DNA of 64,000 nt from Candidatus Poribacteria bacterium (GTDB lineage: Bacteria; Poribacteria; WGA-4E; WGA-3G): contig OZ242029.1 of NCBI GenBank assembly GCA_965205015.1, positions 3,424,001 through 3,488,000 on the forward strand, given 5' to 3'. The notes below the pieces were generated by a model, which worked only from the letters and a program-made list of their open reading frames with translations, was not told the origin of the DNA and searched no databases. Position numbers and translations under genes: made by a program. This document shows positions 4,984-27,228 of the stretch, piece after piece (the first letter of the stretch is position 1; every line of letters starts with the position of its first letter).

Positions 4984-5012
4984 TTGACAAAAAGCCCGAA
5001 AACGACTATACT
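4984..5012 (+). promoter_or_regulatory. sigma70 promoter
   Basis: TTGACA-N17-TATACT upstream of the 5115 gene. Confidence 0.7.
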
Positions 5013-5114
5013 ATCTCTATCGCGTTGGCAGACATATCGAGCGTAGGCGCTTGGAAACCACGTGTCTGCCTCCCACTCGATAGGGGATAAAAGCGTGATG
5101 GCGTGAGGTTTCCC

Positions 5115-5525
5115 ATGAAAGCGATTTTTCTTTTTTCAATACTATTGTGTGGTATCGCGCTTCCGGTACTCGGTGAAACTTCCGAGAATGCTATTGAAAC
5201 GGACATTGCAGTCATAAAAACAGAAATTAAAAATCTAAATGAAAAGATTGACAGCAAATTTGAGGGCATTAACAACAAATTTGAGAGCATCGAAAAGAAT
5301 TTTGACAGACAAAATAACACCATCATCATCGCTTGCATCGGTATACCTTTGGGGATTCTTGCAATATGTGTAACTGTGTGGGGCATATTCGTAAACAGAC
5401 GAAGGCCTAACGTCAACGAACAGCGGGAACAGATTGAACAACTCATACGCGACCAAGAACAAAAAATCGAAGCACTTACCCAAGAAATCGAAGCACTCAA
5501 ACAACAACGAACCGTCACTCCATAA
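5115..5525 (+). CDS. Small membrane protein with coiled coils
   Basis: Signal peptide, heptad region, one TM helix, C-terminal coiled coil. Confidence 0.75.
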   Translation: MKAIFLFSILLCGIALPVLGETSENAIETDIAVIKTEIKNLNEKIDSKFEGINNKFESIEKNFDRQNNTIIIACIGIPLGILAICVTVWGIFVNRRRPNVNEQREQIEQLIRDQEQKIEALTQEIEALKQQRTVTP

Positions 5526-5576
5526 CGCCTTGTTATTATGTTCACCGCCCCTATTTCGGAAGGAGAAAATTCCAGG

Positions 5577-8546
5577 ATGAAGAGCACGTTGTTAGCGATT
5601 ATTTTGACCCTACTTTTTGTTTCAACCCTTTATCTACCCAACACCTTTGCCCAAGATTCCCCGCAATGGAACTTGCCAGAGGGTGCCAAAGCCCGTTTAG
5701 GCATAGTCAAAGGTCGTTTAACTGGGATAGCGTATTCCCCGGATGGCAGTCGGCTTGCGGTGGGAAGTAGCGTCGGTGTTTGGATGTATGATGCGCGAAC
5801 CGGTGCGGAAGGGACACTGATTGGCGGATACACCGATTGGGTCTATAGTGTTGCGTTTAGTCCCGATGGAAACACGCTCGCAGGTGGGGGTAGAGACTAT
5901 GCAGAGACTACACTGTTCGGTGTTCGGTTATGGGACCCAGAAACTGGAAACATCAGAAACATACTCACGGGACACACCGACCAGGTCCATAGTGTTGCGT
6001 TTAGTCCCAATGGCACCACGCTCGCAACTGGGGGTAGAGACCACACTGTTCGGCTATGGGACCCAGCAACGGGAAACAGCATAAATACACTCACGGGACA
6101 CACCGACCAGGTCCATAGTGTTGCGTTTAGTCCCAATGGAAATACGCTCGCAACTGGGGGTAGAGACCACACTGTTCGGCTATGGGACCCAGCAACGGGA
6201 AACAGCATAAATACACTCACGGGACACACCGACTTTGTCAATAGTATAGCGTTTAGTCCCAATGGAAATACGCTCGCAAGTGCGAGTAATGGGGAAGTGC
6301 GGTTATGGGACCTAGCAACGGGAAACAGCATAAACACACTTAGACACACCTCCTGGGTTTATAGTGTTGCGTTTAGTCCCGATGGCACCACGCTCGCAAG
6401 TGGGAGTGGCGACGAGACCGTACGGCTATGGGACACAGAAACAGGAAAACTCATAAACACACTCACCGAACACACCGACCTTGTTCGTAGTGTTGCGTTT
6501 AGCCCCGATGGCACCATGCTCGCAAGTGGGAGTGATGACAACACCATTCGGGTATGGGACCCAGAAACTGGAAACAGCATAAACACACTTAGACACACCA
6601 GGGGGGTCTATAGTGTCGCGTTTGGTCCCGATGGAAATACACTCGCAAGTGGGAGTCTCTCAGCAGAGGTGCGGCTATGGGACACAGAAACAAGAAACAG
6701 CATAAACACATTCACGGGACACACCAGGGAGGTCTATAGTGTCGCGTTTGGTCCCGATGGAAATACACTCGCAAGTGGGAGTGGCGACGAGACCGTTCGG
6801 ATATGGGACACAGAAACAGGAGACAGCATACATACACTCACAGGACACACCCAGGAGGTCTTTAGGGTCGCGTATAGTCCGAATGGCACCACACTCGCAA
6901 GTGGGAGTGGCGACAAGACCGTGCGGGTATGGGATACAGAAACAGGAGACAGCATACATACACTCACGGGACACACCAGGGGGGTCTATAGTGTCGCGTT
7001 TGGTCCCGATGGAAATACAATCGCAAGTACGGGTCTGGACAACACCGTTCGGGTATGGGACACAAAAACTGGAAACAGCATACATACACTCACAGGACGC
7101 ATCAACTTTTTCAAGAGTGTCGCGTTTAGCCCCGATGGAAACACACTCGCAGCTGGGGGTTACTCAGCAGAGGTATGGTTATGGGACACAGCTACAGGAA
7201 AACTCATAAACACACTCCTAATCCAGGGCTTTGTCAATAGTGTCGCGTATAGTCCAGATGGAAATACACTCGCAATTGGGCATGATGGTCGTAAGGGATG
7301 GGCCGTTGAGTTATGGGACACAAAAACTGGAAACAGCATACATACATTCGCGGGACAACACACCCGTGGGATCGCGAGTGTCGCGTATAGTCCGGATGGA
7401 AATACACTCGCAGCTGGGTATGGGGCCGGCACGATCCTTCTATGGGATGCCACACCTTACACCTTACAACCGTTCGCCGCTGAGACAGATAGCATAACAA
7501 AGGAGCCGGAGGTGCCTGTTGATGGAAATGTTGCGCGCGTGAGTCTCTCCCCCGCATCCGTATGGTCTGGGAATGTAGGGGATCAGTTGACGGTAAACAC
7601 CATCATCGCAGATGGCGTAGATGTTCGGGGATATCAGGTGGAACTCACTTTTGATACGGCTGCGTTGCGGTTCGACTCAGTTGCAGATGGTGGGTACCTG
7701 CCAGTGGATGCTTTCCAATTGGCACCTGTGGAGAACGGCAATCGCGTCACGGTTGGTGCGACATCGCTGCAAGCAAGCAGCGAAGGCGATGGGACACTTG
7801 CAGCGTTCACATTTGAAGTGCTGACTGCTTCGCCTGCGATGCCGACCTTATCCGATGTGAAACTGACTGACAGCGATGCAAACTTTTTAGCCGTACGGAT
7901 TGAGACCGAGGCGGGAACGGATCCCCCGCCCCTCGCTGGAGACGTAAACGAAGATGGTGTGGTGAGTCTTGAGGATTTGGAGGCGGCTGTGGCGCGTCGG
8001 GGGCAAACGGGTGAGAACACAGCGGATATGAACGGCGATGGTGTTGTGGATGCCGCGGATATCGTGTTAATCGCAGCAGCGATAGAAGCCGCGGCAGCCG
8101 CTCCATCCCTGCATCCATCAGTTATTATTGAAATGTTCACTGCAACAGAGGTGCGTCAGTGGCTGTCGTTTGCGCGGGCAGAGGGTCTCACAGGTCCGAT
8201 GTATCAGCGAGGCTTTCTGCTTCTGGAGCAACTCCTTGCGGTGCTAACGCCAGAGGAAACACTGCTCTTAGCGAACTATCCCAACCCGTTCAACCCGGAG
8301 ACGTGGATCCCATATCACCTCTCTGAACCTGCGGATGTCTGCATTTCGATTTATGCTGCGGACGGTCGCTTGGTTCGGGTGCTAACCTTAGGGCATCAGG
8401 GTGCGGGTATCTACGAGTCTCGTGGGCGTGCGGCGTATTGGGATGGTAGGAACGCCTTCGGGGAGCCTGTGGCAAGCGGTGTGTATTTCTATACGTTCAC
8501 CACAGGCGACTTCACGGCAACCCGGAAAATGCTCATCAGGAAGTAA
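5577..8546 (+). CDS. Secreted WD40-repeat protein with cohesin-like, dockerin/EF-hand and FlgD/T9SS-like C-terminal domains
   Basis: About 14 GH...SVAFSPDG...LWD repeats, GYQVELTFD (cohesin-like), GDVNEDG/ADMNGDG (dockerin-like), LLANYPNPFNPETWIPY...TRKMLIRK. Confidence 0.92.
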   Translation: MKSTLLAIILTLLFVSTLYLPNTFAQDSPQWNLPEGAKARLGIVKGRLTGIAYSPDGSRLAVGSSVGVWMYDARTGAEGTLIGGYTDWVYSVAFSPDGNTLAGGGRDYAETTLFGVRLWDPETGNIRNILTGHTDQVHSVAFSPNGTTLATGGRDHTVRLWDPATGNSINTLTGHTDQVHSVAFSPNGNTLATGGRDHTVRLWDPATGNSINTLTGHTDFVNSIAFSPNGNTLASASNGEVRLWDLATGNSINTLRHTSWVYSVAFSPDGTTLASGSGDETVRLWDTETGKLINTLTEHTDLVRSVAFSPDGTMLASGSDDNTIRVWDPETGNSINTLRHTRGVYSVAFGPDGNTLASGSLSAEVRLWDTETRNSINTFTGHTREVYSVAFGPDGNTLASGSGDETVRIWDTETGDSIHTLTGHTQEVFRVAYSPNGTTLASGSGDKTVRVWDTETGDSIHTLTGHTRGVYSVAFGPDGNTIASTGLDNTVRVWDTKTGNSIHTLTGRINFFKSVAFSPDGNTLAAGGYSAEVWLWDTATGKLINTLLIQGFVNSVAYSPDGNTLAIGHDGRKGWAVELWDTKTGNSIHTFAGQHTRGIASVAYSPDGNTLAAGYGAGTILLWDATPYTLQPFAAETDSITKEPEVPVDGNVARVSLSPASVWSGNVGDQLTVNTIIADGVDVRGYQVELTFDTAALRFDSVADGGYLPVDAFQLAPVENGNRVTVGATSLQASSEGDGTLAAFTFEVLTASPAMPTLSDVKLTDSDANFLAVRIETEAGTDPPPLAGDVNEDGVVSLEDLEAAVARRGQTGENTADMNGDGVVDAADIVLIAAAIEAAAAAPSLHPSVIIEMFTATEVRQWLSFARAEGLTGPMYQRGFLLLEQLLAVLTPEETLLLANYPNPFNPETWIPYHLSEPADVCISIYAADGRLVRVLTLGHQGAGIYESRGRAAYWDGRNAFGEPVASGVYFYTFTTGDFTATRKMLIRK

Positions 8547-23574: not shown

Positions 23575-24302
23575 GTGCGTTTCAGCGAATAATGATGGAA
23601 TGTAAGTTCAATTCTTACTCGGTAAACCCAACATCCGCATATCTTACTCTAACTGCGTTGCTGGAAACAGCAAGGTGGAAAGCAAGAGGAAATGGCGCAT
23701 GTCTGCGGACAGAGGCGAAACTCATAAGAGCGTCCAAAAGTGACACGTCCGATAGAGGACGGACATGGATAAACGAAAGTTGAATATCCGTAAGCCTCGT
23801 TAGGATAGACATAGATACCGCCTTGAAAAACTATGGTATTCTAAGATACCTCTTTATAGTAGGTGTCTGAAAGTTGCTATTCAAGTCTTAGCAACTCTAT
23901 TGGGTTCATAGAATACAGGAGTGGGTGGTTTCCCACTGTATCGGGGTATAGGATACTTCTAAATCCGTCTGAGAAGTCTATCATTAGGGAGTTGAAAAGA
24001 ACCTAAGTAGACTCCCCGAGTCTATAAGGTTGAGGAGATTAGGTAGCGTCATTGACGCGAGCATAATCAGGTTGAGTGCTTTGAAACATTTCTGAAAACA
24101 TTTTATCTATAGTCTTGAAATCGTGTGAAAACATGCAGTCTATAGAAGTCGATGACTTATGAATAAGGAAGAAAGTAAAAGTGGTTATCATGACCTAAAG
24201 CGTTTATCGCCACACTCAACTGGAAGGTCTCCATGTGCGGTGAAAGTCGCACGCATGGTTTGGAGGGGGCTGTTAGAGGGCGACCTCTAATGGCTACCCT
24301 AC
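23575..24302 (+). ncRNA. ORF-less group II intron (728 nt)
   Basis: Starts GTGCG, ends CCCTAC. Domain V at 24228-24261 has a GAAA loop and AC bulge. Domain VI has a bulged A at 24296. EBS1 CAAGTC (23882-23887, in a hairpin loop) is complementary to exon end GACTTG (23569-23574). Confidence 0.9.
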
Positions 24303-24315
24303 AAAGGAGGTCCCG

Positions 24316-24675
24316 ATGGAGGACCCAACGAAAACAAAGAACCTTCACCCCTGAGTTTAAAGGCCAAATTGTTCTTGAGGCACTTAGCGGTGAAACTTCG
24401 CAAGCGGAACTGGGTCGTCGACACAACCTGAGTGAAGATCAACTCTCGAAGTGGAAGCAGCAAGTCGTTGAAAACGTAGGATCTTTGTTTGCTTCCACAG
24501 AGCAGCAGTCCAGCGAGGCAGCTGAGCGGATCGCACACCTTGAACAGCTCGTTGGGCGGTTGACTGTGGCACTCGACATTCAAAAAAAAGCAGCGACGTG
24601 GTTAGACCAAAACTGACGGAGCAGCAAGAAATAGTTGAGGCACTCCGGACGGATTATTCGGTTCGACAGATATGT
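24316..24675 (+). pseudogene. IS3 transposase orfA/orfB remnant
   Basis: AAAGGAGG then ATG 24316 is one base out of frame with RTQRKQRTFTPEFKGQIVLEAL...QLSKWK. OrfB is truncated. Confidence 0.8.
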
Positions 24676-24850
24676 AAGGAGGATATACGCGTCAAGGCAC
24701 CCAAACCTAAAGGATTGGGCTTGTGCTTCGTAGCAGTCAGCCTTCCGAGGAAGGGACTTACATCTGCTCCACAGAGGGACCCAAGGCAGCCCTCAAGATG
24801 TTTATCGCAGCGTTTACGTCCCTATCGTGGTGTGAACCACACTCACGACA
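24671..24850 (-). ncRNA. Predicted TnpB omega/reRNA (scaffold over the tnpB 3' end and right end; guide is the flank 24690-24671)
   Basis: Established TnpB architecture; hairpins CTTCC-TC-GGAAG and CCCAA-TCCTTTAGGT-TTGGG. The 5' boundary is approximate. Confidence 0.55.
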
Positions 24851-25978
24851 CGTCCACTGCCGATCCGAAAGTGAAAGATTTTCGGTGTGATGCCCGCAAT
24901 CGGAGCAAGGTTTTGTAGTAGGCGTCCACTGCCCAACTTGAGAGAACTCACGATTATGTTTAAAACACTTGAACCTCAGTATCTCAACAAACTGGTAAAA
25001 AGCAAGGTCAGAGACTTTGCGTCCCCACAGACGTTTCATCCCATCAAGGTTCAGCGTCTCGGTGACAATGTGGTCAAACCGACGGCAGAGGTCGGTCGCA
25101 CGTTTGTAGTGCCAATCCCTGCGTTGGTTGGCGATCTTACGATAAAGCCGTGCGAGTTCACGGACAGCACGCCACCAATTGTTAGAACCTTTCTGCTTTC
25201 GGCTGACTGCCTTGTTAAGTTTTCGGAGTTGGTTCAAGGCGTTTTTCAAAGGTTGCGGATGGTGGATCTTCTCACCGGTGCTCAGGGTCAGATAGGTGTC
25301 CATACCGAAGTCTATCCCTACGCTCTTACCTGTAGCGGACATCACTTCTTTGGATTTACTATCTGTCACAACATAGAGCCACAATGTTCCGACAGCATCC
25401 TGACCGATTTGAATATACTTGACGTTCCCCTCCCACTCGCGATGGTGGTGATACAAGATATTTCTGCGGACAAACACAAACTTCTGTTTCTCTATATCCC
25501 ACTCTTTGAAGGAGAGACAGACAGTGCCTCTCGGAACTTTAGACGGTTTATCGTCATCCTTAGGGGGGACTTCAAAGACCTTGTACCCTGTTTGGAACTT
25601 CGCAGAGCGGTATTTGCTACGTTTTTTGAACTTCGGAGGTCCCACGCGCCTGCCACGTCTGCCGTTTTCAATCCAATCAAAGAACCGCTCATACCCGATA
25701 TGGATACGGATAATCACAGCGTCAAGCGTATCACGGGGGATCCATGCCCAATGCTTATGGGTGCGTTCGAGCAACTTCGTCAGATGCGGTTGCAGGCGAA
25801 AACGACCCGCGTATTTTCCATAGATACGGTAATATCGCTTCTCCAAAGCAAGGAAGTGGTTATGCACATCACCCAAGTCATCAAGCATGTTGCCGACGCG
25901 CATGTTTTGCGAGTGTTCGCGTATTTGGTATTTGTAGGTGCGACGCACACGCTTTTGTTTTCGCTTTCGTTTTTTCAT
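24758..25978 (-). CDS. tnpB: RNA-guided endonuclease TnpB
   Basis: RuvC-I GIDFG, RuvC-II VTETLN, zinc finger CSDC/CREC, RuvC-III DRDVNAAINI. Catalytic D/E/D residues are intact. Confidence 0.95.
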   Translation of the reverse strand: MKKRKRKQKRVRRTYKYQIREHSQNMRVGNMLDDLGDVHNHFLALEKRYYRIYGKYAGRFRLQPHLTKLLERTHKHWAWIPRDTLDAVIIRIHIGYERFFDWIENGRRGRRVGPPKFKKRSKYRSAKFQTGYKVFEVPPKDDDKPSKVPRGTVCLSFKEWDIEKQKFVFVRRNILYHHHREWEGNVKYIQIGQDAVGTLWLYVVTDSKSKEVMSATGKSVGIDFGMDTYLTLSTGEKIHHPQPLKNALNQLRKLNKAVSRKQKGSNNWWRAVRELARLYRKIANQRRDWHYKRATDLCRRFDHIVTETLNLDGMKRLWGRKVSDLAFYQFVEILRFKCFKHNREFSQVGQWTPTTKPCSDCGHHTENLSLSDRQWTCRECGSHHDRDVNAAINILRAALGPSVEQM

Positions 25979-25980
25979 AG

Positions 25981-26077
25981 GATGTCACGTATCACGCCTT
26001 TAACCCCTGATAAGTGGGTGGGACCGACACGTAACCTTGCGGTTACGCTTATCATGTCGGTCCAACGTGATACATCT
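25981..26077 (-). ncRNA. Structured 5' leader of tnpB with a predicted kissing/pseudoknot pairing
   Basis: GTATCACGTT/GGCGTGATAC, GGACCGACAT/GTGTCGGTCC, GTAACC-GCAA-GGTTAC, and TGATAAG/CTTATCA. Confidence 0.65.
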
Positions 26078-26106
26078 ATCAAACCATAATTTATTGAAAA
26101 TGTCAA
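26078..26106 (-). promoter_or_regulatory. tnpB promoter
   Basis: TTGACA-N17-TTTGAT with an extended TG. Confidence 0.6.
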
Positions 26107-26199
26107 GTGTTTTTTCAAAAAAAAACGCTATGGTCTAACACATGAGGGCGGATTTTCCTCCCAAGTCTAAAGACTTGGGTTTCCAATCCGTAAACTTTG

Positions 26200-26799
26200 A
26201 TGAAATATGTGCGGTTGTTATTGATTCAATGTGTACTGCTTGTATTGGGATTGGTCGGTTATTGCATTGCTACTGAGATTGGCTTTGAAGCCGAAGACGC
26301 AGATGAAATTGTAGCAATCATGGAAATTTATGAAGATAAGAAAGCTTCAGGCGGTATGTATATATCGGCGGGAAAGGGCGGGGGAGGGCGCCACCCCGGT
26401 AAAGCCGATTTCGTGATTAACGTTAGAACACCCGGTCAGTACACGATGTGGGGGCGGGTGATTGCCCAAGATACGGCGAAGGACTCTTTCCATGTCACAG
26501 TCGATCAGAAGAAAAGTCCACAACCGGGTGATGCCAACATGATCTGGGATACAGGTCAGCATCAGGAGTGGACGTGGTCAAAAGTAAAATGGCGCGAAAA
26601 GAATCCGTTGACCTTTGATCTGAAACCGGGGAAACATACCGTTACATTTTGGTCTAGGGAAGGCGATACCCGTTTGGATGCCGTTTACATGGCAATAGAT
26701 CCCGGCGCTGTCCCCAAACTACCGAATGAAATTGAGGGTTTTGCTGTGCATCCCCGGAATCGCTTAACGACAACTTGGGCGGCGCTAAAAAATCGGTGA
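26200..26799 (+). CDS. Secreted carbohydrate-binding-like beta-sandwich protein with C-terminal LTTTWAALK
   Basis: Signal peptide, FEAED, YTMWGRV, DSFHV, REGDTRLD. Its RBS (24676-24682) is separated from it by the tnpB element. Confidence 0.8.
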   Translation: MKYVRLLLIQCVLLVLGLVGYCIATEIGFEAEDADEIVAIMEIYEDKKASGGMYISAGKGGGGRHPGKADFVINVRTPGQYTMWGRVIAQDTAKDSFHVTVDQKKSPQPGDANMIWDTGQHQEWTWSKVKWREKNPLTFDLKPGKHTVTFWSREGDTRLDAVYMAIDPGAVPKLPNEIEGFAVHPRNRLTTTWAALKNR

Positions 26800-27228
26800 T
26801 GAAGGTCAACACATGATAGGTTACCATTGGTTCGCCTATCCTAACGCGGCAGAAGGGCTATACGCCAAAGTGTTCGCACGTGTCAACATGTTCGGTAGCG
26901 ACGAGGAGACCTGTCTGGTGTGTATCAAGCAAGGCAGGCTTTCGGTAACGCGCCAAGTCTGGGACGATGTCGTCTCGGTTCATGATAAACAGTTGCTGGT
27001 GTGTTTATAGTGGGAACCATTTCTGAGTCTCGATGTTCTTTTCAGCTCTACCAACGATGCCTGTATAGCCCGCAATTTCGGCAGGGACGGGATGTGCAAA
27101 TAGATCCGTAGGAGTTTACCTCGCCTGACGCTATCCACGTCCTCACAACCTTCCAAAATTTCTCGATATGTCAAGTAAGTCATGTTGAATTTTCCTAATC
27201 TGTATGAGGTAAGTATCCCTGAAACCGG

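Follow-up and report, generated by a model that had tools for sequence, protein, structure and literature searches.

The window analysed here is a stretch of 64,000 nucleotides from a Candidatus Poribacteria bacterium (contig OZ242029.1 of assembly GCA_965205015.1, positions 3,424,001 to 3,488,000 of the forward strand), and its minus strand carries a tnpB gene of an IS200/IS605-type element whose start ATG lies at 25978-25976. The 5′ untranslated region (UTR) of this gene is occupied by a compact, pseudoknotted RNA fold, referred to below as the leader. A preliminary description of the window had stated that a fold fills the tnpB 5′ UTR, ends a few nucleotides before the ATG and leaves no clear Shine-Dalgarno (SD) sequence, and this is borne out; no SD-like 4-mer is found at -16 to -4 of the window tnpB ATG. 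The leader consists of the following parts, with coordinates counted along the window.

25979-26073, minus strand: leader RNA, comprising the fold and the spacer to the ATG (covariance model 114.1 bits, E = 7e-31; minimum free energy (MFE) z = -5.95)
26073-26064, minus strand: P1 5′ strand (a), GTATCACGTT, pairing with 25998-25989, with double changes in 6 of 10 pairs
26063-26055 with 26029-26021, minus strand: P2, 9 bp, GGACCGACA with TGTCGGTCC, enclosing the bulge and P3
26054-26048, minus strand: TGATAAG, the 5′ strand of the pseudoknot, a bulge of 7 nt that separates P2 from P3
26047-26030, minus strand: P3 hairpin CGTAACC-GCAA-GGTTACG, with double changes in 7 of 7 pairs
26019-26003, minus strand: P4 hairpin ACCC/GGGT (ACCC-A-CTTATCA-G-GGGT), whose loop carries the pseudoknot 3′ strand
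26014-26008, minus strand: pseudoknot 3′ strand CTTATCA in the P4 loop, forming 7 bp with TGATAAG
25998-25989, minus strand: P1 3′ strand, proximal copy (a′1), GGCGTGATAC, the partner of 26073-26064
25985-25990, minus strand: P1 3′ strand, distal tandem copy (a′2), ACGTGA, 6 nt (CATCCT) 5′ of the ATG

The architecture is that of a three-way junction closed by P1, in which P2 and P3 make up one continuous arm interrupted by the 7-nt bulge, and the loop of P4 pairs with that bulge. A single unpaired C separates the P2 3′ strand from P4, a TAAA junction connects P4 to the P1 3′ strand, and the junction strands measure 0, 2 and 6 nt. The MFE of the nested fold is -44.3 kcal/mol, compared with -25.5 on average in shuffles, and none of 200 shuffles is as stable. 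P1, P3, the P4 hairpin and the bulge-loop pairing all lie on the minus strand where they had been described; P2 is likewise present, with 9 bp rather than the 10 originally counted, since a tenth pair (U/G) is in competition with the C-G pair closing P3, which covaries. No third pairing partner was found elsewhere in the element, either for the P1 3′ strand or for the pseudoknot 7-mers, and the internal ATG of the window leader is not kept among its homologues, which have no conserved upstream open reading frame (ORF). A tRNA- or tmRNA-like identity was also considered and rejected, as ARAGORN returns 0 genes in 24000-27000.

The tnpB 5′ UTR contains a real, conserved RNA-type structure, as is evident from homologous leaders, all of which come from assemblies other than that of the window. 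In a first set of 50 distinct leaders, 94.4% of the paired cells hold a pair (81.5% in shuffles), double changes occur in 24 of 37 pairs, and the covariation score is 0.383, compared with 0.141 in shuffles (0 of 500 reach it) and at most 0.072 in slid registers. A second set, made up of 78 distinct rows from whole-genome matches, gives 95.8% of cells paired and double changes in 27 of 37 pairs. Thus, the test by covariation among homologous leaders, which had been proposed in the preliminary description, yields a very strong signal. The pseudoknot is the best-supported helix, with double changes in 5-6 of 7 pairs over the two sets, 98.9% pairing in the 50 leaders, and three or four Watson-Crick types at each of its four central pairs. 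In 144 of 159 copies the P4 loop contains the exact complement of the 7-nt bulge, which the rest of the element lacks. P2 shows double changes in 6 of 9 pairs with 98.6-98.8% pairing over the two sets; P4 is conserved, with double changes in 0 of 4 pairs in the 50 leaders and 2 of 4 in the 78 rows, and conservation of both P2 and P4 is far above what pairing needs. Invariant positions are found in loops and junctions as well (AG/CU beside P3, the C of the P3 loop, and GGGG-UUAAAG). G-U pairs are common, whereas A-C pairs and non-pairs are rare, and therefore the sense strand is the folded strand. The same architecture recurs with almost wholly different sequence in two subfamilies (L028-32 and L060-75; related copies are denoted by such numbers). 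In L015, L048, L049, L114, L126, L127, L139, L141, L146, L162 and L167 an insertion of ∼26 nt lengthens the P3 loop (matches of ∼134-136 nt), from which it follows that the tip of P3 tolerates extra sequence.

The core of the pseudoknot (26053-26050 / 26012-26009 and the homologous sites) is hypervariable yet complementary throughout. Among leaders that are 3-6% divergent elsewhere, the core sites differ at 41%, compared with 9% in P3, and the core saturates ∼4-5 times faster than P3. We also compared the core with the third codon positions of the adjacent tnpB genes, a noisy comparison in which the pairs are few and non-independent: some leader pairs have a wholly different core while the third codon positions differ by <10%, and in other bins the relation is reversed. 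On these grounds the idea that the pseudoknot changes faster than neutral was dropped, the third codon positions being suggestive in some bins and contrary in others. The hypervariable pseudoknot makes a good test case for the speed of compensatory evolution in multi-copy elements.

The 3′ strand of P1 is present in two tandem copies, which give rise to mutually exclusive closing helices, both of them backed by covariation. In nearly all of 138 distinct leaders the P1 5′ strand can form 6 or more contiguous pairs in each of two registers (A, proximal; B, distal), which are offset by 7 nt, by 8 nt in a few leaders and by 19 nt in one distant subfamily. The P1 core varies by lineage (CACG, CAAG, CUCG, CAGG, CGUG, CCAG, AGCG, CACAG and others) and both 3′ copies track it. 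Taken as a helix in its own right, the distal register is 87.4% paired, with double changes in 6 of 9 pairs and a covariation score of 0.329 (0.130 in shuffles, none of 500 reaching the observed value; slid registers give 0.051 at most). Of the 92 in-helix positions at which the two 3′ copies differ from each other, 68 retain pairing in both, with G/A facing U or C/U facing G, which argues for selection on pairing and not on repeat identity alone. In 102 of the 138 leaders the distal helix ends 4-7 nt 5′ of the ATG; in L028-32 and L060-75 the AUG lies inside the distal copy, with an SD sequence (GGAG or AAGGA) between the copies. An SD-like 4-mer precedes the start codon in only 7 of 126 leaders; the figure is 17 of 29 among the long host ORFs of the window, and 11% at random sites. 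By predicted energy, 44 of the 138 leaders have the two registers within 2 kcal/mol of each other, and 29 favour the distal one. A possible role of the distal copy in pairing with the tail of the 16S rRNA (that of E. coli) was entertained and dropped, as this segment covaries with the P1 5′ strand.

A promoter directly precedes the leader.

26078-26106, minus strand: promoter, with -35 TTGACA at 26106-26101, a 17-nt spacer with TGn, and -10 TTTGAT at 26083-26078

The best -35/-10 pair lies at one fixed offset in 128 of 150 copies, its hexamer ending 4 nt before the G of P1. Over the 150 copies, the -10 at that position reads TATAAT (46), TTTAAT (37), TATACT (17) or TATGAT (12), the -35 reads TTGACA in 93, and TGn stands ahead of the -10 in 96. 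The promoter that had been proposed for the window is therefore upheld at the level of the family, whereas the window copy itself fails a strict promoter scan of 24600-26300 (0 sites), because its TTTGAT is without the A at position 2 that the scan requires. Given the usual spacing from a sigma-70-type promoter, the predicted transcription start falls within the first 1-3 bases of P1. Three terminator-like sites occur in 24600-26300, no more than in shuffles, and none of them is inside the leader. Two related tnpB copies (L046:1460-1505 and L068:1460-1505) are without the leader and carry a TATACT box 6 nt before the ATG, as if their mRNA were leaderless.

The leader is closely tied to tnpB and is abundant across these sponge-associated Poribacteria. 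A TnpB protein scan of species-representative genomes gave 112 relatives, and the best 80 of these all come from metagenome-assembled genomes titled Poribacteria, often with several per genome. The covariance model built from the 50-leader alignment finds the fold directly 5′ of tnpB in 69 of these 80 loci; the other 11 comprise members of divergent subfamilies, a truncated locus and two forms that have no leader. In five Poribacteria genomes (150 candidates scored per genome) we found from at least 23 to at least 51 leader matches each, alongside 24-94 TnpB C-terminal domains. Of 150 listed matches from these genomes, 148 were examined for the downstream gene, and in 143 of the 148 a tnpB or tnpB remnant lies 3′ of the leader, the 143 being made up of 69 with a TnpB domain 0.8-1.45 kb downstream, 18 of another 19 copies in L081-L110 (a fragment only in L101, none in L106), and 56 of the 60 other copies, which have tnpB or a fragment. 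In the four exceptions among the 60 the leader precedes an ORF of 224-234 aa (L128 and L159) whose N-terminus is weakly like HTH_OrfB_IS605 (E = 0.002, below the cut-off), an apparently decayed form of that ORF (L151), or an unrelated membrane-protein ORF (L142). Among 150 genomes sampled across the phylum, 81 contain the fold at E ≤ 1e-5, with at least 1040 matches (at most 25 scored per genome), which makes the leader a large natural data set. In one locus two leaders lie on one strand 1.35 kb apart (L093:1501-1609 and 2850-2957), indicating two elements in tandem.

The TnpB proteins encoded behind the leader range from 94% down to ∼25% identity to the window protein. In L087, L096 and L097, the stretch from the left end through the promoter to the leader has 86% identity to window 25972-26209 (∼240 nt), whereas the TnpB is ∼27% identical and the similarity to the window ends at the ATG. 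The left end, promoter and leader thus constitute a module that moves between tnpB genes, which points to exchange between IS families. The five genomes contain 2-12 tnpA genes each, and three tnpA loci are without the leader. The window contains one further copy of the leader, not seen in the preliminary description.

4984-5121, plus strand: second, solo promoter and leader copy without tnpB (covariance model 64.5 bits at 5010-5121)

No left-end sequence is present upstream of this copy, and its best match is L142, also without tnpB. It stands directly before ORF 5115-5525 (136 aa, with a signal/transmembrane segment and a coiled coil, and no Pfam family above the cut-off), which is followed by ORF 5538-8546, encoding a 1002-aa WD40-repeat protein. 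The solo copy looks like a transposon promoter and leader recruited for host genes, and such copies before host genes suggest that this pair is recruitable for host gene expression.

The element to which the window leader belongs has the following features.

24691-26205, minus strand: tnpB-only IS200/IS605-type (IS1341-like) element, 1.5 kb, delimited by the similarity limits among copies
26179-26160, minus strand: subterminal hairpin of the left end, CCCAAGTC-TTTA-GACTTGGG, presumably recognised by TnpA
24758-25978, minus strand: tnpB ORF, 406 aa (Pfam OrfB_IS605 9e-25, Cas12f1-like_TNB 6.5e-20)
24691-24800, minus strand: conserved structured 3′ region up to the right end (...GGGTGCCTTGAC; stop at ...GCCTTGAC), the expected omega/guide RNA scaffold
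24719-24700, minus strand: right-end hairpin of the same design as the left (CCCAA..TTTA..TTGGG)

Similarity to other copies begins at ∼26205 (range 26191-26209) and stops at 24691 in most of the 40 listed alignments, and copies inside one genome share ∼1450 bp. TnpA recognises subterminal hairpins of IS200/IS605 elements; the leader is not such a hairpin, as these are present separately at the two ends and the leader is larger and different. The window TnpB aligns to ISDra2 TnpB (8bf8, 8.8e-39), with its D223, E307 and D387 at the acidic RuvC-motif residues. It opens with a Lys/Arg-rich extension, MKKRKRKQKRVRR (25978-25940, minus strand), before the usual TYKY, whereas leaderless and distant relatives start MRTYKY. 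In the 3′ region, an alignment of 18 copies gives 36 predicted pairs, 11 of which show compensatory changes, and similarity drops abruptly after TTGAC. Because this separate structured region occupies the place expected of the omega RNA (reRNA), the leader is a different RNA, as the preliminary description had also held. Identification of the leader with the TnpB omega RNA fails on position too, as the leader lies 5′ of tnpB while the structured 3′ region ends at 24691, where similarity stops. The guide region has a match of any kind in only 38 of 90 loci, and divergent tnpB families match just the 20-40 nt terminal hairpin.

We searched Rfam 15 (4227 models, including IS605-orfB-I RF03065, RAGATH-18, HEARO, riboswitches and ribozymes) for a family to which the leader might belong. 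Nothing matches the leader in 24000-27000 at E ≤ 10, no leader match reaches the gathering score in the whole window, and none is found at E ≤ 1 in 10 diverse copies; the covariance-model search suggested in the preliminary description thus leaves the leader outside the families of this release. In the literature searched, no description was found of a tnpB 5′ leader or of control of TnpB synthesis via the 5′ UTR. A motif by the name of 'Poribacteria-1' was reportedly listed by Weinberg et al. in 2017. It is not mentioned in the main text of PMC5737381, and RF03040-RF03043, its alphabetical slot, are PGK, poplar-1, porB and Prevotella-2, so that it seems to lie outside Rfam. Poribacteria-1 would be a candidate structured RNA of the same phylum, and so abundant a leader would be an obvious catch for that screen; the two might be the same RNA, in which case the leader has already been listed as a candidate without a function. 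That listing is not known to cover the linkage to tnpB, the two closing registers, the exchange of modules or the variability of the pseudoknot. The tandem P1 3′ copies, the variable yet complementary core, the mobile left-end module and the membership of a very large repeat family are additions to the preliminary description.

We tentatively favour, at a little under an even chance, the reading that the leader is a cis-acting, two-register translational throttle on tnpB that also buries the 5′ end of the mRNA. With transcription beginning in the first 1-3 bases of P1, the mRNA 5′ end would be buried in a helix and the RNA protected. In register A, P1 would use the proximal copy and leave ∼11-14 unstructured nt before the SD-less AUG, which would be open to the ribosome; in register B, P1 would use the distal copy, placing a helix 4-7 nt from the AUG, or over the AUG in the distant subfamilies, so that the ribosome would be blocked. 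The pseudoknotted core may serve as a rigid scaffold that fixes the junction. The balance of the two registers could then set a low, tunable translation of TnpB from a strongly transcribed RNA whose 3′ end serves as guide RNA. The earlier suggestion of a translational repressor accordingly retains its plausibility insofar as an SD-less AUG adjoins a covarying alternative helix, whereas it sits poorly with the window copy, in which the open register A is favoured by 7 kcal/mol.

Several observations weigh against this reading. The bias towards register A, together with a distal helix of only 6 bp, implies that the switch may hardly operate in the window copy, and over the 138 leaders the median gap of +2.35 kcal/mol also favours the proximal register. 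Covariation of the distal register is not fully independent of that of the proximal one, the 3′ copies being direct repeats. The -10 of the window, as noted, does not pass the strict scan. Contigs of related copies that include the leader are present in four metatranscriptome runs; they extend beyond the predicted start and the left end, may derive from DNA carry-over, and are uninformative on start, strand and level. The core is more elaborate than a simple occluding helix needs, which hints at a further partner or function. Finally, the RNA is identical in sequence to the top-strand single-stranded DNA (ssDNA) of IS200/IS605 elements, and the strand asymmetry is therefore also compatible with a role at the DNA level.

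The same data may be read in other ways, of which the closest, though we consider it unlikely, is that the leader is a stabiliser or processing element of the mRNA 5′ end, giving protection from decay that depends on the 5′ end, or a site that separates element RNA from read-through, with translation not the main target. The position of the -10, 4 nt before P1 in 128 of 150 copies, means that the 5′ end should be paired, and the fold is very stable at -44 kcal/mol; the same transcript must, as the precursor, also give the 3′ guide RNA, and the leaderless-looking copies, with their -10 6 nt before the ATG, imply that the leader is an add-on that is dispensable for translation as such. Such a role leaves the second P1 3′ copy, which abuts or contains the AUG, unaccounted for, and a simple hairpin would suffice for protection. 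It is less likely still that the leader is a protein-binding operator, on which TnpB or a host protein would bind the pseudoknotted core and shift the P1 register in a feedback loop. The sequence-invariant loop and junction positions, the conservation of P2 and P4 far past pairing needs, and a slight likeness of the P2-bulge-P3 arm to the stem-bulge-hairpin unit of the 3′ guide-RNA region would all suit such a site. However, a leader that is 86% identical, left end included, serves TnpBs that are 27% identical and whose families have no 3′ guide region in common, so that TnpB-specific recognition is unlikely; mimicry of the omega RNA, letting TnpB bind the leader, was rejected on the same point, as the 3′ regions differ between tnpB families having the same leader. 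We give little credence to copy-number sensing, in which the bulge of one leader would kiss the P4 loop of another with the same 'barcode', so that identical copies repress each other and variants escape. It would explain a core that is hypervariable but complementary (41% against 9% in P3), the exact complement in 144 of 159 copies and the tens of copies per genome. Against it, many copies in one genome have the same core (L013, L014, L037, L052, L069), the intramolecular partner is always nearer, the fast change may reflect weak sequence constraint or module recombination, and the third-codon-position comparison is noisy.

An equally slight probability attaches to a small-molecule riboswitch in which the junction binds a ligand and the P1 registers act as the expression platform. 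A three-way junction, a distal tertiary contact and two exclusive closing helices resemble the general design of several riboswitch classes; yet tnpB or a remnant of it follows in 143 of 148 copies examined, the few exceptions stand before small membrane proteins that belong to no known pathway, and no Rfam riboswitch model matches. The riboswitch-like role raised in the preliminary description is not sustained, as the leader is tied to tnpB, has no metabolic gene set and allows no ligand to be inferred. Poorer still are the prospects of an ssDNA structure of the transposon left end, used by TnpA in excision or integration. The fold does lie inside the element, ∼130 nt from the left end, and travels with the left end as one module, and IS200/IS605 elements move as ssDNA of the mRNA-sense strand. 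Nevertheless, canonical subterminal hairpins of matching design are found separately at both ends, the spacing of the fold to promoter and start codon is fixed, the distal copy overlaps the AUG in distant subfamilies, solo copies persist before other ORFs without the left end, and three tnpA-carrying loci are without the fold. Least probable of all is that the leader trims the 5′ UTR by acting as an undescribed kind of self-cleaving ribozyme. The compact pseudoknotted fold, invariant junction nucleotides and location in a mobile element are in keeping with it, whereas no hammerhead, twister, pistol, hatchet or HDV-like match is found (E ≤ 10 in the window; E ≤ 1 in 10 copies), no conserved candidate cleavage site was identified, and junction strands of 0, 2 and 6 nt misfit the consensus of the hammerhead core; with no ribozyme model matching, the ribozyme-like role put forward earlier finds no support. 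A bolder extension of the two-register reading is that the leader represents a new class of regulatory RNA, which would respond either to some signal or protein of the host or, through barcode kissing, to how many sister copies are present, and flip the P1 registers to gate TnpB, with the pseudoknot under diversifying selection for escape from cross-repression among lineages; we regard this as quite unlikely.

The leader is a structured transposon-gene leader, of a known kind but of unusual architecture, for which the cis-regulatory reading set out above is partly supported. IS10 is subject to fold-back inhibition, in which a structured 5′ UTR limits translation. Two reports describe structured 5′ UTRs in IS200 tnpA (with antisense art200) and in ISPpu9 that limit translation by hiding the ribosome-binding region (PMC4513863, PMC8450116). 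The leaders of IS200 tnpA, ISPpu9 and IS10 are the nearest functional analogues, each a structured 5′ UTR of a transposon gene. In contrast to the IS200 tnpA type, the present leader precedes tnpB, forms a 90-nt three-way junction with a pseudoknot and has no SD to hide, and what would occlude the start is the closing helix itself in its other register; unlike IS200 with its art200, no antisense RNA turned up here, although only the promoter scan bore on this. The TnpB omega RNA resembles the leader in being a pseudoknotted structured RNA of the same element, probably from the same primary transcript. It lies at the 3′ end, however, overlapping the end of tnpB and running into the flanking guide, whereas the leader lies at the 5′ end, has no adjoining variable guide and is common to elements with unrelated 3′ regions. 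The purine and tetrahydrofolate (THF) riboswitch aptamers are three-way junctions with a distal loop contact and a P1 coupled to expression. The leader is like them in its expression-coupled P1, in its two arms held by a distal base-paired contact and in its conserved junction nucleotides, but differs in that it shows no similarity in sequence or model, no metabolic genes, and a distal contact that is hypervariable. Cas12 descends from TnpB, which is itself in use for genome editing and whose guide RNA has been closely studied. Were the two-register control of tnpB correct, the transposon would uncouple high transcription, as needed for the guide RNA, from low nuclease output, and the leader would be a compact, portable module for expression control.

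Other features of the region are minor. An antisense open frame of 400 aa (24887-26089, plus strand) spans tnpB and the leader, and is taken as a by-product of coding-strand composition. Beyond the element, ∼390 nt past its right end, an Rfam Intron_gpII match (domains V/VI) at 24222-24302 on the plus strand scores 48.3 bits, above the gathering score, and overlaps ORF 24233-24616 (plus strand), which has an HTH_Tnp_1 transposase domain. Window positions 24303-24636 are 75% identical to L021:3351-3680, and hence represent another repeat.

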